Below are positions 20,435-63,836 of a stretch of 64,000 bases of DNA, piece by piece (position 1 is the stretch's first letter; each line of letters starts with the position of its first letter). This stretch comes from Escherichia coli phage NG_A1. The translations under genes were made by a program, and so were the position numbers. The stretch is taken from the sequence record LC788705.1. One strand, 5' to 3'. Below the pieces are notes generated by a model. It saw only the letters and a program-made list of their open reading frames with translations. It was not told where the DNA came from and ran no database searches.

Positions 20435-20672
20435 TTTCTTTAATCAATTCTCCCAATTCTCTATAGATTTGATCTAACTCAAAAGATATACGTAATGATA
20501 TACTTTGCTTTCTCTGCTTTAGCAACCATGCGCCTATACCATTTATGGATGCTAGTCTAGCAGGAACCACCCTACATAGCTTTTCCGAAGTATCATAAAC
20601 AGGAACTTTACGTTCTTTTACTGGAAACTTCCTTGTTTCCCATTTTTTATTCTTCACTGTCATTTCTAGCAC
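20412..20672 (-). CDS. Hypothetical protein
   Basis: 86-aa ORF. Confidence 0.4.
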   Translation of the reverse strand: MLEMTVKNKKWETRKFPVKERKVPVYDTSEKLCRVVPARLASINGIGAWLLKQRKQSISLRISFELDQIYRELGELIKENDNTGRG

Positions 20673-23436
20673 CTAGCTCTGACATTGCTTCATCGTGCAT
20701 ATGTTTTTCCTCGTCAGTCATGAACTTATAAGGAATCGGCATACATTCGATTTTACAATAGGTTCTGTACCAGTCTACTATATTTTCAGTGTTCATATCC
20801 TTACCAATACCCATCATACCAAGATACATTCTTGCATATTTTGGATTAGCACTCTGACCTGTTTTAAGGAAGAAGTCCTTCTTCTTACCTTTCAGAGCTT
20901 CTATGAATGGTTTAATGGTCACATTTGAACACTTCTTAATATCTTCCCAGAACATCTCGTGCATCTTATGAAAGAATGCAGCTCGATCATTTGGTTTATC
21001 TTTGATATATTGTTCAACATGCTCAACTGTTACATCTTTAATAGACTCAAGATGATAATAGCGAACAAGAAGTAGTTTAGCTTCATACGCATCTGCATGA
21101 CGTGGGGCACAGTAATCCGGAGTTGAATGTAGGATAGCTTTGATTCGCTCTTCTGTATATTCTTTGCCTGCACCTTCGATAGTTCCCCAGCTTTCACTGA
21201 AAATATCAATAGTTGCACCCTGATCAAGCAAGTAATAACGTAAGGTACTAGTATAGTTCCTAGATTCCAGCTCCCTACGACGTGCGTATAATTGCTGTGC
21301 TAACTCCAGCCAACCCTCATCAATATTATATTGTTCAGAACCTGCGGAGAATCCACTCGTAGATTTATCAATAAAGTAATAAATGTTCTGAGCACCACGG
21401 TCGCGCCTGATTGCTTGGAAACGCATGTTTGGCGCTTGGTTGCTGGTTCTAGTAATAACGAATACGTTATCAAAATAGTTGAAGTCAACGCCACTTGTTA
21501 CGGATGGACTACATAATAAGCAATCAATTTGTTGGTCAATTAGCTCATTAGTTGTGTAATCCAGAATACGTCGAATATCTACATCGGATGTAGAATTTGA
21601 GTGGATTTCCTTAACTAACGCACCCGTATTACGACGCAATGCCATGCCCTTCTCATTCAGTTCATCCGGTCCACAGTCAGATACTAGGATAGATTTCTCA
21701 CCCATCTCTAGAGAAGTCTGAAGTGCAACCCAAATACTGGATTCATCAGGGAACTCATAAGCATGAGCTTTTGACAGCATTTTACGGTGATGATTATAAA
21801 ATGCAACTGGTTTATCAAACTCAATCAAAGAACCATATGCTTCAATTGTTTCTGCACTAATATCCCCATCAGATAATATAATGATTTTTGCAGTTGCAAG
21901 AATATCCCGAAGAACCTGAATACATTCACGACGTTGTTTAACAACCGGGGCGAATAATAGGTCGTTCATTACTGCATCACATTCATCGATAAAGATTGCA
22001 TCAATTTGACCAATAAAACTCTTGAACTTATGCAAAGAGTGAATAGTTGTGGACATACGGTCAATAGCACCACGCTTAAAATTAAGCATATCTACAGACT
22101 TATCGTATTGTCCTGCACTAAATTTCTTAGCATTTGAAGATACCAGTGCTCTAGTATTGGTAATTGCTAAAAAATTACCTTTAATAACTCCTGAATCTAA
22201 CCAACGCACAACCGCCGTGGTTTTACCTGTGCCTAAACTCGCTTTTACAAAAGTCATATAACCTTCTGGTGGCACAGTATTTAGTTTCAAGAAATTATCA
22301 GTTTCTAGAGAATTAGTTTCTAGCTTTTTAAGTGGAATACCTTTTAAAATATCGGGTATATCGCGTTTAGAATTATTAACAAACGCTTTCAGAGCCTGCT
22401 TACGACCGTTATTAAAATAATCTTGAATATTACGACTGTTATCTTTAGTTGCGATATATTCTGATAAGGCTGGACGGATTTCTTTTTCTAGCCATGCAAA
22501 ATCAACACCATCCTCTAATGCTCTATGGTATAGTTTGGGGATAATACGCAAGTACACCCCATCCTCAGCTTCTTCTAGTTCGCTGATAGTTTCCTCTACT
22601 TTATCAGAGGCAGCTTTTTTACCTTTAATTTGATCGAGTAAAGAGTAAAACTCCTCCTTAAACTCACCTCTAGTTGTTTCATAGTCAACCAGATTATTTG
22701 GTAAATTTACTTTAGAACCTTTAACAAATACCAGACGTGAAGCACCCTCCGCTTTAAACGGATCTACTATACCATCGGTAAATAACGGATCTGCAAAATA
22801 ATGGAGCTGTACGGAAGAGTAATAAGCTAAGTCGGCAATATCAAAGCCGTACTTTTGTCTACTACTTTCATTGATAGATGTAAATAAGAATTTGATTTGA
22901 CCCTGAGTTACTTTAACATTAGATTCTAGTATTAAGTGCATTCGGATACCTGGTTTTAGCCCAGCCGAAGACGATGCATGAGCGATAAACCCTGCATCAA
23001 GAGGAAACATATCCTCACTAATACTATTTAACATCCTAATAATATGTCGAGCCATGCCAACAAGATCAAACTTGTTACAACCACCTGTATCTACAATACC
23101 ATCCACGTCCATTGCAATTATATGACTTGGGTTAGATACATTAAAGTTGCCCTTCTTACGTCGCACATTATTTTTAGGTGCAAGACATCGACCTCGTACC
23201 GCAACGATATGAGGGTCAGACGTTAAACGTCTCATAAGAGGAAGCATTTCTACTAGGGTTTGAGGATCAACTTCATCAATTACATCAAACTTGAAGGGCA
23301 TTGAGGCTGGTTTACCTTCAGGATGCTTTGAGGAAAATCTTTTAGCAAAAAGATAGTCTTCTGCTTTAACTTCTCGCCAATTGCCTGTGGCTAAATCGCG
23401 ATGAAATCCTGCATGACCTTGTAGGATTGAGAACAT
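20647..23436 (-). CDS. Large P-loop NTPase, putative replication initiation / origin-binding (primase-helicase-like) protein
   Basis: Walker A SLGTGKTTAV mid-protein; start moved to MFSILQGH preceded by AGGAG (track start 23514 has no RBS). Confidence 0.65.
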   Translation of the reverse strand: MFSILQGHAGFHRDLATGNWREVKAEDYLFAKRFSSKHPEGKPASMPFKFDVIDEVDPQTLVEMLPLMRRLTSDPHIVAVRGRCLAPKNNVRRKKGNFNVSNPSHIIAMDVDGIVDTGGCNKFDLVGMARHIIRMLNSISEDMFPLDAGFIAHASSSAGLKPGIRMHLILESNVKVTQGQIKFLFTSINESSRQKYGFDIADLAYYSSVQLHYFADPLFTDGIVDPFKAEGASRLVFVKGSKVNLPNNLVDYETTRGEFKEEFYSLLDQIKGKKAASDKVEETISELEEAEDGVYLRIIPKLYHRALEDGVDFAWLEKEIRPALSEYIATKDNSRNIQDYFNNGRKQALKAFVNNSKRDIPDILKGIPLKKLETNSLETDNFLKLNTVPPEGYMTFVKASLGTGKTTAVVRWLDSGVIKGNFLAITNTRALVSSNAKKFSAGQYDKSVDMLNFKRGAIDRMSTTIHSLHKFKSFIGQIDAIFIDECDAVMNDLLFAPVVKQRRECIQVLRDILATAKIIILSDGDISAETIEAYGSLIEFDKPVAFYNHHRKMLSKAHAYEFPDESSIWVALQTSLEMGEKSILVSDCGPDELNEKGMALRRNTGALVKEIHSNSTSDVDIRRILDYTTNELIDQQIDCLLCSPSVTSGVDFNYFDNVFVITRTSNQAPNMRFQAIRRDRGAQNIYYFIDKSTSGFSAGSEQYNIDEGWLELAQQLYARRRELESRNYTSTLRYYLLDQGATIDIFSESWGTIEGAGKEYTEERIKAILHSTPDYCAPRHADAYEAKLLLVRYYHLESIKDVTVEHVEQYIKDKPNDRAAFFHKMHEMFWEDIKKCSNVTIKPFIEALKGKKKDFFLKTGQSANPKYARMYLGMMGIGKDMNTENIVDWYRTYCKIECMPIPYKFMTDEEKHMHDEAMSELGARNDSEE

Positions 23437-23935
23437 AACAATACTCCTGTGTTGGAAATAAAATAAGTTTTCTTTAGGACTATTCAGAAAGAATAGAACA
23501 ACTGTTACTGTCAATTTCTCAACAAATTAATCGCAAATACTGAAGTGGGGTGGCAACTTCCACTTTCACGCTGCGCTGCTGCTTTGCTATATCGCACAAA
23601 TCCTTGAGGATGGCCGCTAAGCCAGATTTGCTCACCTAATGCTTCATATACTAGCTCATACTAGATGCAATATAACTTACAGAATCACGTCTCGGAGTTT
23701 TTCACTCCTCCCATCTCACTTCACAACCACCTCATACTAGGTTGCTTCGAGGCCTTACCAGGGTTCCTATGGGACGCAGATCGCTAAGTATTCTATTAAC
23801 TATTTGTTTAAAAACTAACACGTAACAGTTAAAACAACCCTTAATGGGGCAGCCTAACTGTTCCGTATCGCGGATTGTAAACAAGAAAAATTAGCAAAAT
23901 CAATTTTTACTAATGTCTCTCAATTCAATATAAAT

Positions 23936-23964
23936 ATTATATCAAGATTTTGGGCATCCTGCAA
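23936..23964 (-). promoter_or_regulatory. Early-type promoter about 480 nt upstream of the NTPase gene
   Basis: rc reads TTGCAGgatgcccaaaatcttgaTATAATatttatattgaattgagagac. Confidence 0.55.
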
Positions 23965-24055
23965 GTAAAATTTTCCGGATGGTGCTATCATTGGTCTTGA
24001 GTACGGATAAAACCGAGCCAAAATGACTCGGTAATCAGAGTTCAGCTAATAAAAA

Positions 24056-24448
24056 TCATTCATCATTTAAGCCTGGAACATAAATCCCAACACGGTTTAA
24101 TTGTTCTTTAGCTTCTTTGAGAATATCTGGAGTGTACTCCCAAATATCATCTTCCACCTGTAAAAGATGGGGCGAACAACCATCATCCGACACACGACAT
24201 ATGGCCAAACCACGTGGGTGGAACAAAGAGAAATTTAGGGCAACAATTAAACCCATAGCAGACAACTCATTCCAATCCAACTCCCATTCCCCCGCGTAGC
24301 CGGATAGGAAAACACCAACACAGGGATCATCTATTTGCTGCTCCGGAAAAGTGAAGGAGGCTTGTCTTACCCCCAACCAACGTTGCAGCAGCTTCTCCCC
24401 ACGTTTCACCAAACTAGGATCAATCTGACGCCAATATACTTGTTCCAT
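24056..24448 (-). CDS. Hypothetical protein, paralog of 24458..24886
   Basis: 130 aa; shares ...GW.ELD.MGL..ALN..LF.P...PG... with its neighbour. Confidence 0.5.
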   Translation of the reverse strand: MEQVYWRQIDPSLVKRGEKLLQRWLGVRQASFTFPEQQIDDPCVGVFLSGYAGEWELDWNELSAMGLIVALNFSLFHPRGLAICRVSDDGCSPHLLQVEDDIWEYTPDILKEAKEQLNRVGIYVPGLNDE

Positions 24449-24457
24449 TCTGCCTCC

Positions 24458-24886
24458 TTAAGCAGTTAAACCTGGGATCATATACCCGAAACGTCGAAGT
24501 TTCTGAATCCCCTCATTTACTTCTTCCGGTGAGTAAGACCAACCATAACGTTCATTAACCTGAAAACCAGGAGATTCACTAGTTTTATAGTTAACAACAA
24601 GGCGATGCTTAGCAGGCATAAACAGCTTATAATTTAACGCAAAAACTAAGCCCATTTCGTCTAACTCTTTCCAGCCCACAATCTCTTCAAGACCCTCCTC
24701 TACCTGCACAATTAAACCAATACAGGGAGCCTCATCAATATCATCTTTAAAAGCAAAGGAGATTTCGTTATTCTCACACCATATTTTCAAAGAGTTAATA
24801 GCCTCATTATACAGGCTAGCTGGGAGAGTACGCCAAAAGTTAGCCAAAATTGGGTTAGCTTTTTTAGAGAATACATTATTGAACAT
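24458..24886 (-). CDS. Hypothetical protein, paralog of 24056..24448
   Basis: 142 aa. Confidence 0.5.
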   Translation of the reverse strand: MFNNVFSKKANPILANFWRTLPASLYNEAINSLKIWCENNEISFAFKDDIDEAPCIGLIVQVEEGLEEIVGWKELDEMGLVFALNYKLFMPAKHRLVVNYKTSESPGFQVNERYGWSYSPEEVNEGIQKLRRFGYMIPGLTA

Positions 24887-29804: not shown

Positions 29805-29976
29805 CTACATTTTTCTAATACTATTTGACTTTTGATTTTTATCAATTTTTATTGATGCTATACAGCATAATATCTTTACATATAAATAAATGATTATCTA
29901 GTATCATATTTCTACCTTTATAAGCAAGTAAATTTTTTATTTAAAAGCAATATCATAGGTTTATTTAAAATTATAC

Positions 29977-30005
29977 TTGCTTTTTGCTGTAAACCTTGTT
30001 ATAAT
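29977..30005 (+). promoter_or_regulatory. Early-type promoter for the plus-strand block
   Basis: TTGCTTtttgctgtaaaccttgtTATAAT. Confidence 0.6.
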
Positions 30006-30081
30006 ATATTTGTAAGTTGATAAACAAGATCTCTTTGTTGATCCTCTGTTAGAAGCGAAGTACACTATAGGAGTGTTATTT

Positions 30082-40836: not shown

Positions 40837-41219
40837 TAATTTAAAAGCTAGTAAATCGGTAGACGAAAGCCCAAGCATCTTACCTCGCAGCAGCGGTTGA
40901 AATACGAGGTTAAATAAGACCGCTGACCATACTATAAAGTATAATCTATTGGAGATTATGTTTATTACACCAGCCTTTTAAGCTGACACGTAAGAACAAA
41001 GCGTCGTTGATATTACCGACACAACTTCAAAGATCAACATTTAAGTATGAAAGCTGAAAAGTTTAAAGAACTCAAACTTCTAAACTTCTAAAGCTAAAAG
41101 ATGCAAAGTATTCGTTGATGATTCAAACCCTAGATCAAAGGTACATGGCTCGTAAGATATGGCCTGTGGCGCCTCTAGGCTGTTTATCGGTTTACTAGTT
41201 TCACAATTTAAAAATGTAT

Positions 41220-41248
41220 TTGCTAATTTATTAAGTTTTCTGTATAAT
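41220..41248 (+). promoter_or_regulatory. Early-type promoter
   Basis: TTGCTAatttattaagttttctgTATAAT. Confidence 0.65.
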
Positions 41249-41278
41249 ATATTTTTAAATTGATGAAACGAGGCTATT

Positions 41279-42733: not shown

Positions 42734-42741
42734 AAATTTAT

Positions 42742-42770
42742 TTGCTAAATGCTTATAAATTCTGTATAAT
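42742..42770 (+). promoter_or_regulatory. Early-type promoter at the head of the tRNA region
   Basis: TTGCTAaatgcttataaattctgTATAAT. Confidence 0.65.
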
Positions 42771-43007
42771 ATATTCATAAATTAGAGAACAGCGAGCCGA
42801 TTACGCTGAACTTGTCTTAATGTAAGATGCGTCGAGCACTAAGATTCGTTGAATAGAGTCGGTGGGTTAGTTGTAAAACTAGTACACAGGGGGCGGCAAT
42901 CCCGGTTAGTGGCTAGAACGTGTAAAATGAGGCGTCTGAAACCTCTCCCCTAAACTCTTCTCTAATTTATAAATAGTGGGGTGTGGAAATCACTTATGTA
43001 GTAACAC

Positions 43008-43080
43008 TGCCGTCCTAGTATAATTGGTATTATCAAGCCGTAACTGGTGGAAGATGTAGGTTCGAATCCTACGGTCGGTA
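43008..43080 (+). ncRNA. tRNA-like element (canonical T-arm, imperfect acceptor pairing)
   Basis: T-arm gtagg-ttcgaat-cctac at 43056-43072, D-loop-like aattggta; no 7-bp acceptor helix found. Confidence 0.25.
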
Positions 43081-43589
43081 AGAACTGGATAACTGATGCT
43101 TTTAATGTAAAAGCTTCCGAGGTTAGTTGCGCACTGCCTAAACCACGCGGTAGTTGGTTCCAGACTAACCAACCAGTCTGCTGAATAGTTTTATTACGAT
43201 TTAACTATGTCCAGGCTAAAGAAGAACTTTAGAAGGTATTCTAGGATAGTGAAGTTCTTTCTCCATATCGGAGTAGTTTTTCAAGCTATCCACAAAGTGG
43301 GAAATGCTGACATGAGAGATGTCACTAATGGTGCACAATAGCACAGGTAATTCGCGATAACTCCTGTTGAGTAGCAGCAAAAGGTGGGAAGTCATGACCC
43401 CAAGCCTAACCGAGTCCTCAATATACCGCAGGACATAACTACTAAGTCACCCTGACTTAAACTGGAAAATAATAGACGTTACTGTATTTTGTCTTGAAAT
43501 ACTTAATGAGTGAGACTTATGACTCTCCCGGTATCGTCTGTATTTTTAAGAGTTTTTACGAGAGTTCTTAAAAATACTTAAACGGGGTG

Positions 43590-43657
43590 TAGTCTAAGGG
43601 AGAGGCAGGAGTCTTCTAAATTCCTTTATGCAGGTTCGAATCCCTTGTCACGCACCA
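43590..43657 (+). ncRNA. tRNA-like element ending in CCA
   Basis: ggttcgaatcc T-loop at 43633-43643 and ...cgcaCCA 3' end; stems imperfect. Confidence 0.25.
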
Positions 43658-43689
43658 AATTTGATGGTCAGAGTAAATTAAACCTACTA

Positions 43690-43733
43690 TCTCGGTTGAG
43701 CTGTTTTAATGGGTTCGAATCCCAGCGAGGCGT
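43690..43733 (+). ncRNA. tRNA-like minihelix (T-arm plus short acceptor-like stem)
   Basis: ctcg...tggg-ttcgaat-ccca-g-cgag. Confidence 0.2.
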
Positions 43734-43782
43734 AACTGCCTGGTGTGATAGAGGCATCATTCCACTAACATTGGAAAAACTA

Positions 43783-44013
43783 ATGAAACGAAAATTAAAA
43801 AAGTCTTATATAATTAAGATAAATAAGCTACGAAGTAGGGCAAAAGGATGGCCACTTCGAATATTAATTGCGGATAACCATACTAGATACCATGCGGAAC
43901 AACGTCATTACAAACAGTGGGAGTCATACTGCCGCTCAAAAGCAGGTCGTTTAGATGGATCTTATGAGTTTCTATTTGGTAAAAAGCCTACTAGAGTAGC
44001 TTTAGGTAATTAA
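43783..44013 (+). CDS. Small basic hypothetical protein in the tRNA region
   Basis: ORF from ATG 43783 (track ORF 43645..44013 begins inside tRNA-like sequence). Confidence 0.3.
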   Translation: MKRKLKKSYIIKINKLRSRAKGWPLRILIADNHTRYHAEQRHYKQWESYCRSKAGRLDGSYEFLFGKKPTRVALGN

Positions 44014-44018
44014 TACTT

Positions 44019-44109
44019 GGAAGAGCAAATCGAATTGGCGACGAAAACCGCTTGGAAAGTGGCTGACTGGTAAAACGGCTTGAGAGTTCAAATCTCTCCT
44101 CTTCCGCCA
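44019..44109 (+). tRNA. Type II tRNA, probably tRNA-Ser (anticodon GGA tentative)
   Basis: 7-bp acceptor ggaagag/ctcttcc, discriminator G, CCA; T-arm gagag-ttcaaat-ctctc; 91 nt with long variable arm. Confidence 0.5.
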
Positions 44110-44121
44110 AACAATTTATAT

Positions 44122-44216
44122 GGTAGGTCAATCCAACGGCTGGCGCTGGACTCCGACTTGAAATCGGTTGATCGTAGTGATACGGTGTAAGGGTTCGATC
44201 CCCTTACCTACCTCCA
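44122..44216 (+). tRNA. tRNA-Ser (UGA), type II
   Basis: Acceptor ggtaggt/acctacc, CCA; anticodon loop cTTGAaa on stem ccga/tcgg; T-arm aaggg-ttcgatc-ccctt. Confidence 0.55.
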
Positions 44217-44221
44217 AATCT

Positions 44222-44352
44222 TGGAATATGCCGGAATTGGTAGACGGGACTGCCGAATAGGTTTACTAGGAACATCCACTCCTAGAAATATACCTTAAAA
44301 GCGGTTGAGTTAAATGGTCTAACTCATGAAGGTTCAAGCCCTTCTATTCCTT
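44222..44352 (+). ncRNA. Atypical tRNA-like element, about 131 nt
   Basis: Leu/Tyr-type D-arm ccggaattggtagacgg, T-arm gaagg-ttcaagc-ccttc, acceptor-like tggaata/tattcct, but about 80 nt between D- and T-arms. Confidence 0.3.
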
Positions 44353-44581
44353 GATACATCAATGGCTCAAAGTGTAACGGTGCTATTTGATGCTCTTGGA
44401 AAGACTTTCCCGACATGCGTTCGGGGGTAAGCTTCTGAGGCTAGAATAGAAGAGTTTCTGAGAGCCGCCACAATTGAAAATTCGTACTCGTCTTGAGCTG
44501 CATGCAATAGGAGATAACTTGATTAGTATTCTAGAACATGCTAATTGAGGATGGTTTCGCTAACCCTGCGAGTTTTCAATT

Positions 44582-44659
44582 GTGGCTATATCATAATTGG
44601 TTAATGATCCTGATTGTGAATCAGGCCTATGTGGATTCGAATTCCACTAGCCACCCCCA
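44582..44659 (+). tRNA. tRNA-His (GUG)
   Basis: Acceptor gtggcta/tagccac, D-stem tcat/atga, anticodon loop ttGTGaa on stem cctga/tcagg, T-arm gtgga-ttcgaat-tccac, 3' CCCCA. Confidence 0.65.
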
Positions 44660-44684
44660 AATTAACTTAAATAGGAAATAAAAT

Positions 44685-44879
44685 ATGGCTGATTTCTGCA
44701 AACAATGCTCCATTGATATGTGGGGCAGAGATACTGGTGATCTTTCTGGGCTGATTACAGAAGCCGAAGTCAAAGAAGGTTATGGTGCAGTTGTGGTTTG
44801 TGAAGGATGCGGAGTCATTCGAGTAGATCATGAGGGTAAGCGCCTTGAAGAACCTGAGCCAGTTACCCTATTTCCCTAA
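44685..44879 (+). CDS. Small Cys-rich (zinc-ribbon-like) protein
   Basis: 64 aa; CKQC...CEGCG. Confidence 0.4.
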   Translation: MADFCKQCSIDMWGRDTGDLSGLITEAEVKEGYGAVVVCEGCGVIRVDHEGKRLEEPEPVTLFP

Positions 44880-44892
44880 AGTAAAGAATTAT

Positions 44893-44968
44893 TGGGATGT
44901 AGATCAATTGGCAGATCGTCGGCCTCTGACTCCGAAGGTTCCACGTTCGATCCGTGGCATCCCAGCCA
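44893..44968 (+). tRNA. tRNA-Gln (CUG)
   Basis: Acceptor tgggatg/catccca (U1:A72), D-stem gatc/gatc, anticodon loop ctCTGac, T-arm ccacg-ttcgatc-cgtgg, G+CCA. Confidence 0.7.
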
Positions 44969-44974
44969 AATACT

Positions 44975-45050
44975 TGGAGAGTAGTGTAACGGTTAGCACA
45001 ACGGCCTTTGACTCCGTTAATGGTAGGTTCGATTCCTCCTTCTCCAGCCA
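44975..45050 (+). tRNA. tRNA-Gln (UUG)
   Basis: Acceptor tggagag/ttctcca (U1:A72), anticodon loop ctTTGac, T-loop ttcgatt, G+CCA. Confidence 0.7.
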
Positions 45051-45057
45051 AATTAAT

Positions 45058-45132
45058 GCGTGATTAGTTCAGTGGCTAGAATAACTGGCTTCCAACCAGT
45101 AGACACGAGTTCGACTCTCGTATCCCGCACCA
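45058..45132 (+). tRNA. tRNA-Gly (UCC)
   Basis: Acceptor gcgtgat/atcccgc (one mismatch), anticodon stem actgg/ccagt with loop ctTCCaa, T-arm acgag-ttcgact-ctcgt, A+CCA. Confidence 0.7.
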
Positions 45133-45146
45133 AATAAGGAAACACT

Positions 45147-45398
45147 ATGCACGTTTTTGAGTTTCGTAATAAAAGTACTGATAAGCGAGTTATCATTATT
45201 GGAGAAACATATCGAGCATATGAACAAACTGATGGCTCTGTTATCTTGAATGATGAGAAAGGAGGTTTTAGCTTTTATCCAGAAGAACCTTATGAAGAGT
45301 TTCGAAAACAATTTAACCTAGACTGGAGAAAGCATTTAAACACTGTTGCTTCATCTGTAGTATTGCCAACTACCAGTACTGTACTCTCTAATGGCTGA
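45147..45398 (+). CDS. Hypothetical protein
   Basis: 83-aa ORF after AAGGAAA. Confidence 0.4.
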   Translation: MHVFEFRNKSTDKRVIIIGETYRAYEQTDGSVILNDEKGGFSFYPEEPYEEFRKQFNLDWRKHLNTVASSVVLPTTSTVLSNG

Positions 45399-45555
45399 CA
45401 ACCTAAAAGTAAAGATTGATAAACAAAAGAAACGTGTAGAAGTAGAGATTGGTGAAGAACGTGTTGCCTTTACTTTTGAATTTCTACAGCAAATGGCAAT
45501 GGCAGTTATGACTGATAAGTCTCCTGTTATTGAAAAAGAAATCCCGTTGAAATAA
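45391..45555 (+). CDS. Small hypothetical protein (54 aa)
   Basis: ATG 45391 overlapping previous ORF end; hairpin 45541-45565 follows. Confidence 0.3.
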   Translation: MADNLKVKIDKQKKRVEVEIGEERVAFTFEFLQQMAMAVMTDKSPVIEKEIPLK

Positions 45556-45565
45556 CGGGATCATC

Positions 45566-45640
45566 GCTCCTAAAGCATTGCTGGCGATGCAGTTGCCTTG
45601 TAAGCATCTGAACCGGGTTCGATTCCTGGTGGGAGCACCA
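45566..45640 (+). tRNA. tRNA-Thr (UGU)
   Basis: Acceptor gctccta/tgggagc, D-stem gcat/atgc, anticodon loop ctTGTaa, T-arm ccggg-ttcgatt-cctgg, A+CCA. Confidence 0.65.
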
Positions 45641-45655
45641 AATTTAAAAATTCAT

Positions 45656-45684
45656 TTGCCTTCTCTCTTATTTATTGTTATAAT
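45656..45684 (+). promoter_or_regulatory. Early-type promoter
   Basis: TTGCCTtctctcttatttattgtTATAAT. Confidence 0.6.
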
Positions 45685-45714
45685 ATTTATATAAATTAAT
45701 GAGAGGGAAACCAA

Positions 45715-46005
45715 ATGAAACGTTATCTTTCTATTGTATTCCAAACTGGTGGTCAAAGATATACCTATGAATTTCCATCTTCTTGGAAAATCAAAGAAGG
45801 TGATCAAGTAGTAGTGTTAACACCGCGTGAAGGGTATAAAGTAGTAATGGTTAAACAAGTATTCCCAAAAGATCATGAACCAGCTAAAGGCATTCGCTAT
45901 AAGATGATTCATGGTGTGGTCCGTCAAGTACCACGAACTGAGGTAGAAGTAGATAAGACTGGAGAAACTAAATTCCATTATACTTCTTACTTAGATAGTG
46001 TGTGA
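45715..46005 (+). CDS. Hypothetical protein
   Basis: 96-aa ORF with GAGAGGG RBS. Confidence 0.5.
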   Translation: MKRYLSIVFQTGGQRYTYEFPSSWKIKEGDQVVVLTPREGYKVVMVKQVFPKDHEPAKGIRYKMIHGVVRQVPRTEVEVDKTGETKFHYTSYLDSV

Positions 46006-46020
46006 TGTAAATATTCTAAT

Positions 46021-46097
46021 ACTTCGGTAGCTTAGCGATCTAAAGCACCCGGCTGATAACCGAGAGATCGGGGGTTTAAATCCCTCCCGGAGTACCA
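46021..46097 (+). tRNA. tRNA-Ile (GAU)
   Basis: Acceptor acttcgg/ccggagt, D-stem gctt/aagc, anticodon loop ctGATaa, T-arm ggggg-tttaaat-ccctc, A+CCA. Confidence 0.6.
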
Positions 46098-46193
46098 AAT
46101 TTAGGAATTAAGACTATGCGTCCAGGAAAGTTTAAAAAAGCTAATTGGTCTAAAGAGTATAAAGAATACTTACTTAGTCTAGTAAAACATAAC

Positions 46194-46269
46194 AGTTAGT
46201 TGGCAGAGTGGTTATGCACCTCCTTCATACGGAGCGACTACAGTGGTTCAAATCCACTACTAACTACCA
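46194..46269 (+). tRNA. tRNA-Met (CAU); could be initiator or a lysidine-modified Ile isoacceptor
   Basis: Exact acceptor agttagt/actaact, anticodon loop ttCATac, T-arm agtgg-ttcaaat-ccact, A+CCA. Confidence 0.6.
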
Positions 46270-46306
46270 TTAAAAGAGCTAGAGATAGCTAAATTTAGGA
46301 GCAGCT

Positions 46307-46501
46307 ATGTTAACAATTAAAATAATGTCAGCCAAGAATGGTGAACATATCCATACAGGCAAAAGTGTAAGCTTTAATCCTAGAAATAAAAGATTGGCTA
46401 TAGTTGGAGTAGACCAAGCCATCTTTTTAAAAGAAGATGAAGTAGCATATGTCATGAACCAAACTGGTAAGACAGTTTCCGTATACTATGGAAAAGTATA
46501 A
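46307..46501 (+). CDS. Hypothetical protein
   Basis: 64-aa ORF. Confidence 0.4.
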   Translation: MLTIKIMSAKNGEHIHTGKSVSFNPRNKRLAIVGVDQAIFLKEDEVAYVMNQTGKTVSVYYGKV

Positions 46502-46543
46502 AGAATAAATAGCTGAGCCAAATTCTAACATCGGGGAGATCTA

Positions 46544-62718: not shown

Positions 62719-62745
62719 CAAAAATTTAAAAGTAACGAAATCTGC

Positions 62746-62775
62746 TTGACATTCGTGAGAATAATGTGTTATAAT
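62746..62775 (+). promoter_or_regulatory. Consensus sigma70 promoter (TTGACA-18-TATAAT) reading into the terminal repeat region
   Basis: ctgcTTGACAttcgtgagaataatgtgtTATAATaatc; no ORF of 60 aa or more for about 700 bp downstream. Confidence 0.55.
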
Positions 62776-63116
62776 AATCTCATAGATTAAAAACATCAAC
62801 TTGTTTTTACCTCTAGGCCGTAGATTTACATCATTCCTCGTAGGAAAACACTTGATGACGGTTCTGCTCGCAGGTTCTCGTCAATTGTTCTTCCACACCG
62901 AGACTTAGGAGGATGTATCAAATCGCACGCGCCTAGAGGGGCTAACTCTCATGAAATGGGGGTATATTTACTTTTAAATAACTAAAAAATATTTAAAGGC
63001 AATATCTGTGTTCAAGATGATACACCTGTTGCCGCTCTCCATCTCTAGGATCACATACACTTTCCTAGAAACTCCAGAGTTCTCACTAAATACTCACGAA
63101 ATATCACACTTCTAGT

Positions 63117-63196
63117 GGGCGGTTCTCCTAAGTTTCTAGGAACATATACTAGGCGGTTTAATACAGGGCGGTTAATATAGGGCGGTTAATATAGGG
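63117..63196. repeat. Five copies of GGGCGGTT, four of them as exact 14-bp-period tandem repeats (unit GGGCGGTTAATATA)
   Basis: GGGCGGTT at 63117, 63142 (ggcggtt), 63156, 63170, 63184. Confidence 0.85.
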
Positions 63197-63236
63197 CGGT
63201 TATTTCTAGGAGACATTTTTCCAAAACACATTTCCA

Positions 63237-63836
63237 GAAATTACTATCGGATTTGCACATTGTGTTTCTAGAAATTTATGGTCGGATTTGCACAAACGCC
63301 TAAGTTTTTAGGAACTCTTACTCCCCTGAAAATGGCAGCATTATTTCGGGCCGAAGGCCCATAATTGCCTGAGTTTTTAGAGCCACAAGAATTTTCACTT
63401 GTCAAGCTATTTTGCCACCTTTAGCAAATAAAATTTTACTTTATCTCCACTAATCTCAAATTAACCCAAATCTTCTCAACTCTTCCCCAAAAACGCAGCA
63501 AATCAGGCGTTGCACGCCACCCATGCTGCTCCTCCAGTTTCTCCCCTTATTTTCTCTCGCTCTCTCAACTTCTCCCCAAACCTATACAATCACATACCCT
63601 CCAATCGAAGTCACAAAAATCTTGTCGGATTCGCACATCTTAATCCTAGAAAAACCGTGTCGGATTTGCACATACCCCACAGGATTCGAACGCAGTTCGT
63701 GATTGCTGGAGTTTTTAGGAAAATTCATTGTCGGATTTGCACACTATAAAAATTTTTCGGGTCGGATTTGCACACTACCAAAAATTGTCGGATTCGCACA
63801 TACACGCCCGCACGTAACACCCGTGGAGCAATGTCG
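63237..63836. repeat. Eight same-orientation copies of the 14-bp motif GTCGGATT(T/C)GCACA
   Basis: Copies at 63237, 63271, 63614, 63649, 63720, 63751, 63777, 63823; irregular spacing (26-343 bp). Confidence 0.85.

Follow-up and report, generated by a model that had tools for sequence, protein, structure and literature searches.

The leader that precedes the D2 gene of T5-like phages (Demerecviridae) was analysed in a stretch of 64,000 nucleotides (nt) from Escherichia coli phage NG_A1 (LC788705.1), hereafter called the window. D2 encodes a bipolar SF2 helicase that has been proposed as the T5 replication initiator. Comparison of related sequences indicates that this leader is very probably a conserved functional RNA structure, a covarying fold of ~430 nt and 14 helices, and a candidate for a new family among the large structured leader or non-coding RNAs. 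Annotations for both the promoter and the long leader already exist in the T5 record. The covarying RNA fold shared across the family has no entry in Rfam and, it appears, no earlier description. Large structured RNAs are rare, and earlier examples proved to be ribozymes, riboswitches or ribonucleoprotein (RNP) scaffolds. T5 is a classical model phage, and hundreds of T5-like genomes have been deposited, many of them from biocontrol or therapy isolates. The fold corrects the annotation of the stretch before D2, puts a structured RNA directly in front of a proposed initiator whose origins and control lack sequence-level definition, and offers a handle on the start and dosage of the T5 replication machinery.

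Pairing was compared across six lineages: the window's own type, the T5/Epseptimavirus type, a Sugarlandvirus, the metagenomic type L056 and the Pectobacterium phages DU_PP_V and My1. Positions are numbered so that leader nt n is window coordinate 23930 - n. A curated table of 14 helices and 75 pairs covers 44 distinct sequences from the six lineages, the members being aligned to six hand-annotated references. Standard pairs fill 98.1% of its 3078 cells and 57 of the 75 pairs change on both sides, figures that carry a bias towards pairing from registers set by eye for the six references. Registers slid by 1-3 positions give 35-49% paired cells and 18-33 pairs changing on both sides, and shuffled partners are 78.5% paired (standard deviation 0.5). 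Three further tests are less exposed to the by-eye bias: one limited to the window's type, one on a plain MAFFT alignment and one with a covariance model. Within the window's own type (19 sequences, unambiguously aligned) seven pairs are double-compensatory versus 0-1 in slid controls, for example G-C to A-U twice in helix P3 and U-A to G-C in P7; the T5 type on its own yields three versus none in its control. The plain MAFFT alignment of 25 full leaders (A2), in which the T5 type is out of register in much of the core, is 81.5% paired versus 72.1% in shuffles, with 49 versus 29.2 covarying pairs and a covariation score of 0.300 versus 0.159; the paired fraction, the number of covarying pairs and the score are each reached by none of 500 shuffles, and slid controls are 33-46% paired. 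Because plain MAFFT misregisters the T5-type core, a covariance model (R1) was seeded from the window's type only, using seven sequences, leader nt 245-390 and 35 pairs. R1 matches the homologous place in L056 (E = 6e-13), DU_PP_V (2e-8), My1 (5e-6), the Sugarlandvirus (3e-5) and T5 (2e-4). In the rest of the window and among 21 unrelated viral loci, no hit has an E value below 0.25. The alignment derived from it, which is fitted to its own model, is 93.9% paired versus 71.7% in shuffles, exceeds all 500 of them, and has 28 of its 35 pairs changing on both sides. The curated table further holds 233 G.U cells and 15 A.C cells; such an excess of G.U over A.C implies that pairing is selected on the sense strand only.

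A gene-free gap before D2 recurs throughout the related phages. The 41 related loci that were examined first all have it before the D2 homologue, with a length of 530-890 nt, and a non-coding stretch of 590-1600 nt occupies the same position in Vibrio, Aeromonas and Pectobacterium phages; on these sequences, the gap exceeds chance. An earlier annotation of the region made from sequence alone (the first-pass annotation) had named conservation and covariation in relatives among its checks and absence from relatives as one ground for rejecting it. The non-coding stretch is present at 41 of 41 loci, and covariation lies above all shuffles. Across 34 Markadamsvirinae sequences, identity is 98-100% over the promoter and the first 100 nt of the leader, above the flanking genes, and 97% in a second conserved block at leader nt 424-463; in the middle of the leader it is ~60%. 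The islands ACGGAACAGUUAGGCUGCCCCAU, CUUAGCGG and GUUGCCACCCC are kept in phages whose D2 is only 61-74% identical. Invariant islands amid variable stretches form a pattern typical of structured RNA. One genus carries two divergent core 'alleles' between identical flanks.

The several hairpins noticed in the first-pass annotation prove to be parts of a far larger and more elaborate multi-domain RNA, all elements of which lie on the minus strand (fold z-scores -2.97 and -2.15). P1 is a hairpin at the inferred 5' end (nt 1-56, 23874..23929), seen in minimum free energy folds of the window and of T5, with an inner stem at nt 16-25/31-40 and a U-rich tract after it; it is ~100% identical across Tequintavirus and Epseptimavirus and shows compensatory changes (A-U / C-G / U-A) in the Pectobacterium phages. 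P1b (nt 61-87, 23843..23869) is a hairpin with conserved internal loops, GAU-AC-GG-AA-CAGU[UAG]GCUG-CC-CC-AUU, supported by covariation and containing the near-invariant island ACGGAACAGUUAGGCUGCCCCAU. Ten pairs were counted here, with 90% of cells standard over all ten; the nine assigned to P1b are almost all standard, and four change on both sides, as in GG/CC to AG/CU and CAGU/GCUG to CGGU/GCCG.

The centre of the structure is a long-range rod, P2, formed by a 5' arm at nt 100-143 (23787..23830) and a 3' arm at nt 389-430 (23500..23541). An inverted-repeat search independently reports the arms, as I6 (9 nt, 100%) and I1 (19 nt). With the arms folded alone and joined by a tetraloop, 27-38 inter-arm pairs form in seven of seven lineages; the window has 9+11 pairs with one bulge, and L056 has a run of more than 20. 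Six of the nine closing pairs change on both sides. One of the closing pairs reads G-C in the window's type and A-U in other T5-type phages, while T5 itself has G.U, a visible intermediate.

The rod closes a core of ~245 nt made up of a three-way and a four-way junction (P3-P7). P3 joins GCG-AU-CUGCG (nt 146-155, 23775..23784), with a conserved two-base bulge (AU; AG in My1), to CGCAG-CGU (nt 355-362, 23568..23575), both strands being supported by covariation. In each sequence a regular-expression search located a single complementary partner, 209-216 nt downstream, and the helix occurs in eight sequence variants; six of the eight P3 pairs change on both sides, and GCG/CGC becomes ACA/UGU inside the window's own type. 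The P4 domain (nt 156-221, 23709..23774), likewise identified by covariation, comprises P4 (UCCCAU/AUGGGA), the small hairpin P4a and P4b (CAACC/GGUUG, with a conserved internal loop GAAG/UGAAGU); both sides change in five of six P4 pairs and all five P4b pairs, and the domain is in register for four lineages even in the plain MAFFT alignment. It is followed by the P5 hairpin GGAGU[GAAAA]ACUCC (nt 222-236, 23694..23708; four of five pairs change on both sides), of which no equivalent was found in the T5 type, and by a conserved junction GAGA(A/C)GUG (23686-23693). The P6 domain (nt 248-351, 23579..23682), defined on the covariance-model alignment A7, contains P6', P6, P6b, P6a and the hairpin HL; within P6a pairing is 100% and all seven pairs covary. 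HL (GGC[UUAGCG]GCC, nt 307-318, 23612..23623) was recognized from invariant columns: its CUUAGCGG is invariant in every enterobacterial-type leader, and its stem, GGC/GCC in the window, reads GAC/GUC in phage My1 and GCC/GGU in the Proteus-type locus. The P7 hairpin AAGUGG[AAGUUGCCACC]CCACUU (nt 365-387, 23543..23565) has a conserved 11-nt loop; five of its six pairs change on both sides, including U-A to G-C inside the window's own type. Between the rod and the ribosome-binding site lies the P8 hairpin CUAUUC[UUUCU]GAAUAG (nt 434-450, 23480..23496), within the 97% conserved block and kept with other sequences in L056, L041 and L033. It is followed by the conserved UCCUAAAGAAAAC (23467-23479) and, before the Shine-Dalgarno (SD) sequence, by an unstructured A/U-rich stretch.

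The transcription signals fit a dedicated leader. The T5 early-type promoter at 23936..23964 (minus) consists of a -35 TTGCAG (23964..23959), a 17-nt spacer and an extended -10 TGaTATAAT (23944..23936). It has the traits of the T5 early class, namely a -35 TTGC(A/T), a spacer of 17-19 nt, an extended -10 TGnTATAAT, an A/T-rich upstream region and an initial transcribed GAGAG. A generic sigma-70 scan missed it because its -35 matches at only three of six positions. The call made in the first-pass annotation is borne out by the sequence, by a set of five exact ACTTGC-N17-19-TATAATA sites in the window (0 expected by chance), of which this is one, and by the T5 reference NC_005859, which annotates a promoter at the homologous place with a terminator before it. 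The promoter is conserved at 91-100% in the 34 Markadamsvirinae sequences. The ORF-free (open reading frame) leader of about 480 nt described earlier is also real: 499 nt separate the -10 from the D2 ATG (23436), the leader is ~493 nt from the inferred start 23929, and it holds no conserved ORF. Most loci of Tequintavirus, Epseptimavirus, Sugarlandvirus and Hongcheonvirus have 487-499 nt between the -10 and the start codon; three further lineages have 474, 525 and 615-619 nt. The G.U/A.C asymmetry together with a dedicated promoter makes RNA structure the natural reading of the element.

As to function, an RNA-level module acting in cis with D2 expression is, in our judgement, the moderately probable overall explanation; that the main role is RNA-level control or processing of D2 expression is quite possible. 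Transcription from the promoter at 23964..23936 would produce an RNA whose first ~450 nt fold before the D2 coding sequence, and P1 would shield its 5' end. A 5'-terminal stem-loop protects E. coli mRNA from 5'-end-dependent RNase E attack. The rod would act as an RNase III processing stem, the cut freeing the core and leaving a D2 mRNA that begins near P8. It offers three to four turns of imperfect, AU- and G.U-rich double-stranded RNA, and RNase III requires about two turns (at least ~20 bp). By analogy with known substrates, cleavage of the rod by RNase III is a possibility that we advance with some reserve. RNase III-processed leaders and precursors (the lambda N leader, the T7 early sites and the stems of 16S/23S rRNA) resemble the T5 leader in having a strong early promoter and a long leader. 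The rRNA precursors share its layout, in which more than 20 bp of double-stranded RNA arise from sequences flanking a folded RNA, like the rod; a small hairpin would be left before the T5 message. The lambda and T7 sites, in contrast, are local hairpins without an enclosed multi-junction core, whereas the T5 leader encloses a new fold and its cleavage is predicted.

With its invariant loops and junctions the core looks like a binding platform. The most plausible partner is D2 itself or another replication factor, and such binding would couple the supply of initiator helicase either to how much of it is present or to the state of infection. Feedback on the helicase by D2 or a partner protein would, by analogy, be the simplest logic. 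The T4 gene 32 and gene 43 operators and the E. coli rne and pnp leaders are, like the T5 leader, structured 5' leaders before genes for nucleic-acid enzymes. These operators range from tens of nt to a single hairpin, with the exception of the ~360-nt rne leader, whereas the T5 fold is ~430 nt with 14 helices and its binding by D2 is hypothetical.

Several points weigh against a conserved RNA that acts in cis on D2. A 14-helix core far exceeds what known autoregulatory operators need. Nothing like an expression platform was seen: the sequence from the core to the ATG holds no terminator, and the SD takes part in no conserved pairing. A second promoter lies between the RNA and D2 in two Pectobacterium phages and in the L036 type, listed as Proteus by elimination (TGTATAAT within the rod 3' arm; TTGACA-17-TATAAT); D2 can thus be expressed without the leader in those lineages, which fits an RNA role beyond cis control. 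R1 and the model R2 give no match in the L036-type, Vibrio or Aeromonas leaders. The by-eye registers of the curated table and the fitting of the R1-derived alignment to its model also count here. Finally, we infer the transcript start at 23929, the RNA ends and any processing from sequence.

The same layout admits another reading, which we consider somewhat unlikely: the excised core would be a stable non-coding RNA that acts in trans, or as an RNP with D2, in T5 replication initiation, either as a pre-primer or R-loop origin transcript of the ColE1 RNA II or T4 oriF/oriG kind or as a helicase-loading scaffold. In size and complexity the core is like ribozymes and RNP scaffolds and unlike operators, and excised stable RNAs are laid out in the same way, with a long flanking rod around a folded core. 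The strong dedicated early promoter, the linkage to a candidate initiator gene across the family, the second promoter that uncouples D2 in three lineages and the two divergent core 'alleles' between identical flanks point the same way, and the T5 origins are not known to have been mapped to sequence (PMC3632103). Against it, accumulation and cleavage are predictions, the conserved P7 loop has no complementary target elsewhere in the window, the leader locus shows no GC-skew turn, and the RNA is always co-transcribed with D2, for which a role in cis is simpler. ColE1 RNA II, T4 oriF/oriG and the transcript-primed origins of T7 share with the T5 leader a promoter-driven, structured transcript of ~500 nt beside replication functions, and in ColE1 the RNA fold decides the ability to prime. 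Of what a transcript-primed origin calls for, a promoter and a structured RNA of ~450 nt are present; the transcript, however, runs on into a protein gene and has no known R-loop, RNase H site, antisense partner or origin activity. The boldest form of this reading, in which the core is a new class of large RNA that starts T5 replication together with D2, as a rod-excised, origin-defining primer or R-loop transcript or as a D2-loading cofactor, is in our view distinctly unlikely. If true, the divergent core 'alleles' would be specificity variants, and T5-like phages would exemplify RNA-dependent initiation by a helicase-initiator.

The large non-coding RNAs ROOL, GOLLD, OLE and raiA resemble the T5-leader RNA in their length of hundreds of nt, their many covarying helices, their invariant nucleotides in loops and junctions, their phage or mobile contexts and their discovery by comparison. 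They are free-standing genes, often near tRNAs, whereas the T5 RNA is the leader of a helicase mRNA, has no match in Rfam 15 and is so far confined to Demerecviridae of enterobacteria. The Rfam scan suggested in the first-pass annotation brought no family: at E up to 10, window 22900-24600 gave just two chance matches of 13-15 bits, and ten related loci at E up to 1 gave terminator-like matches outside the core only. No description of the T5-leader RNA and no paper linking T5-like phages with structured RNA was found among the papers searched, and no RNA is annotated at the leader among the phage records listed, the stretch being left blank or filled with doubtful small ORFs.

That the core is a metabolite-sensing riboswitch, for example one that tunes D2 synthesis to a signal from the nucleotide or deoxynucleotide pool, is improbable. 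Location in a 5' leader, invariant loop and junction nucleotides, covarying stems and a downstream gene for an NTP-consuming replication enzyme would all suit such a role. The ~330 nt between the rod ends, however, are well over the size of known aptamers and nothing marks a ligand pocket; no Rfam riboswitch matches, and no terminator or SD-sequestering alternative helix was found. Neither of two alternative, switch-like pairings is maintained in relatives. The helix I4 (nt 64-75/99-110) is broken in most T5-type and all Pectobacterium sequences, since the rod covaries without it, and the helix I3 (nt 207-219/377-389) is weakened where P7 covaries. Sequestration of the SD by the ACUCC of P5 was rejected as well, the pairing not being conserved.

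That the element acts as DNA is very improbable, whether as an origin, with inverted repeats that bind the initiator and an AT-rich region for unwinding, or as a structure for initiation on a single strand. It would account for the position beside the proposed initiator gene, for the AT-rich stretches and inverted repeats, and for a 5' block conserved beyond what pairing requires. Tolerance of G.U (233) and not of A.C (15), however, signifies selection on one strand, unlike duplex binding sites, and the inverted repeats change sequence freely between lineages while complementarity is kept. There are no iterons (three or more copies being the criterion), only a two-copy 15-nt repeat inside RNA elements. 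The cumulative GC-skew minimum lies at ~30 kb, ~6 kb off, at a flip of gene orientation, which is a weak test as skew follows transcription. We know of no precedent for a 14-helix fold in single-stranded DNA. Of the proposal in the first-pass annotation of a regulatory leader, non-coding RNA or origin, the origin part thus finds no support, with no iterons and no skew turn, and the RNA part is strongly supported as a conserved, covarying, strand-specific RNA in the D2 transcription unit; the transcript itself could conceivably take part in replication initiation.

That the gap hides one or more small protein genes, one of the events that the first-pass annotation would have taken as refutation, is barely credible: leader ORFs of 33-50 codons with TTG, GTG or ATG starts exist, and records such as that of Salmonella phage WP85 (three small coding sequences; L002:1680-2182) annotate 'hypothetical proteins' of 30-60 codons, but no ORF is kept in place, frame or length across lineages (ten compared), each sense frame has 9-17 stops, no ribosome-binding site was noted by eye before any ORF, and the substitutions are those of compensatory pairing and not codon-like. 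The annotated proteins are probably annotation artefacts.

Other identities and pairings were considered and set aside. Bacterial RNase P RNA is of similar size and has strings in common with the leader (ACAGAAC..CCGGCU, GGCUUAxCGG, CCAUAGG and GGUAAG), which stand in a different order in T5; it gave no Rfam model match (E up to 10) and differs in topology. No GGAAAGUCC partner for the ACAGAA strand, as in an RNase P-type P4 helix, was seen by eye in the leader, and the ACRGAAC island instead forms the local hairpin CAGU[UAG]GCUG, in which the changes are compensatory. Pairing of GGCUGC (nt 76-81) with GCGGCC (nt 313-318) as a pseudoknot was rejected, as My1 replaces GGC/GCC by GAC/GUC, a change that suits the local HL, and as the 5' island has a hairpin of its own. 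A 5'-3' panhandle of UUUUUCUU (nt 40-47, 23883-23890) with AAGAAAA (nt 456-462) is possible in several lineages; its chance complementarity is high because a polypyrimidine faces a polypurine of low complexity, and the same U/C-rich tract after P1 is also complementary to GAGAGA at the 5' end. The pattern CTTAGCGG-N45-75-CCAYCCC proved too unspecific across the collection, with 120+ chance loci, some of which were reused only as negative controls.

More distant phages may carry relatives of the RNA. Model R2 matches Providencia phages at 0.0044 and 0.045, and the Providencia leader has a 12-bp long-range helix around its CUUAGCGG hairpin. In Aeromonas phage TS3 (L048:19-1608), 1.6 kb without an annotated gene lie upstream of the D2 homologue and contain three to four UUAGCG hairpins and long-range helices of 12 and 18 bp that share a strand; the stretch possibly holds two tandem copies of a related RNA. 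The helices in the Providencia and Aeromonas leaders suggest homology with the T5 RNA. The Vibrio phage leaders measure 640-715 nt and have long direct repeats (L047:1200-1400 in PG07; L044 and L045 are VF16 and GRLPWR), with a 56-nt unit occurring twice in PG07 and the motif UGAUCUCUG(U/A)GGGAGU twice in VF16.

The two compositional features listed in the first-pass annotation are present in the window. The direct repeat TCATACTAG occurs at 23656-23664 and 23732-23740, and the pyrimidine bias of the plus strand is moderate, reaching at most 77.5% per 40 nt near 23697-23738, ~3 standard deviations over the window mean.

The 5' part of the leader varies among relatives in several ways. A ~97-nt insertion lies between P1 and P1b in L006, L014, L028 and L035 (e.g. 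L035:1856-1952) and is absent from the window, where its site would be ~23883. The insertion includes an 8-bp hairpin (AUUUACGG..CCGUAAAU) and ends in a U-run; it lengthens the leader by about 100 nt and resembles a small element that has entered at a permissive site. A triplicated 9-mer also lengthens the leader in some phages; in Salmonella phage oselot (L004:1656-1686), GCUAAUUUU stands three times in the 3' strand of P1 and is labelled repeat_region by the depositors. In L005, L009, L018, L026, L054 and L058 the leader promoter is swapped for a different one (TTGCAAGGGAGTATTATTTTATAGTATAAT), the RNA being retained from GAGAGACAUUAG on, and L031:1845-2000 has both promoters in tandem with a copy of P1 after each. 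The T5 early promoter type also matches at other places in Klebsiella phages; in Klebsiella phage IME260 (L042:2534-3091) a second promoter of this type, followed by ~560 nt of unannotated sequence, stands between the genes for a DNA helicase and SSB, and this stretch may be a further long leader.

The genes around the leader are all on the minus strand, in the order terminator, promoter, leader and D2. The 900 bases around the leader are 99.8% identical to Escherichia phages T5_ev212 and EC148 and match 526 phage records, nearly all of them T5-like (Demerecviridae). Upstream lie two DUF7415 genes, the second of which ends at 24056, and then an intrinsic terminator of that operon at 24009..24031 (minus), CCGAGTCATTTTGGCTCGG+TTTT, with an 8-bp stem CCGAGUCA/UGGCUCGG, a UUU loop and UUUU; the homologous terminator is annotated in T5 NC_005859 and in phage Lindwurm. 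Downstream, the D2 gene (20647..23436, minus; 929 residues) is preceded by a Shine-Dalgarno AGGAG at 23448..23444 and starts with ATG at 23436..23434, the two together spanning 23434..23448 (minus). The start codon is GTG in nearly all relatives, T5 included.

The 929-residue protein, called an NTPase in the first-pass annotation, is the homologue of T5 D2 (AAU05245). Its single Pfam match is Herpes_ori_bp (residues 394-533), and it belongs to phrog_3712, which the database labels 'replication origin binding protein'. Wong et al. (2013) cloned the T5 ORF AAU05245 (2787 nt, GTG start) as D2 and showed experimentally that it is a bipolar SF2 helicase, for which a replication initiator role was proposed (PMC3632103). 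Residues 1-400 (window 22237-23436) have no Pfam match, and a profile search of the PDB gave nothing significant for them. Across 12 lineages, down to 25% identity, this N-terminal part keeps an invariant D110-x-D112, H167 and more invariant acidic residues. These recall the catalytic motifs of archaeo-eukaryotic primases, and D2 may be a primase-helicase.

Elsewhere in the window, cumulative GC skew turns and gene orientation switches at ~30000, with an early promoter pattern at 29975-30006 (plus), and, as read from the sequence, this place is a divergent transcription point. Five more stretches of 400-900 nt without an ORF of at least 70 codons occur at 40879-41278, 42734-43644, 44014-44829, 46006-46543 and 62719-63509, three of them in or beside a cluster of eight tRNA genes (43582-46269) found by a tRNA scan of the whole window.

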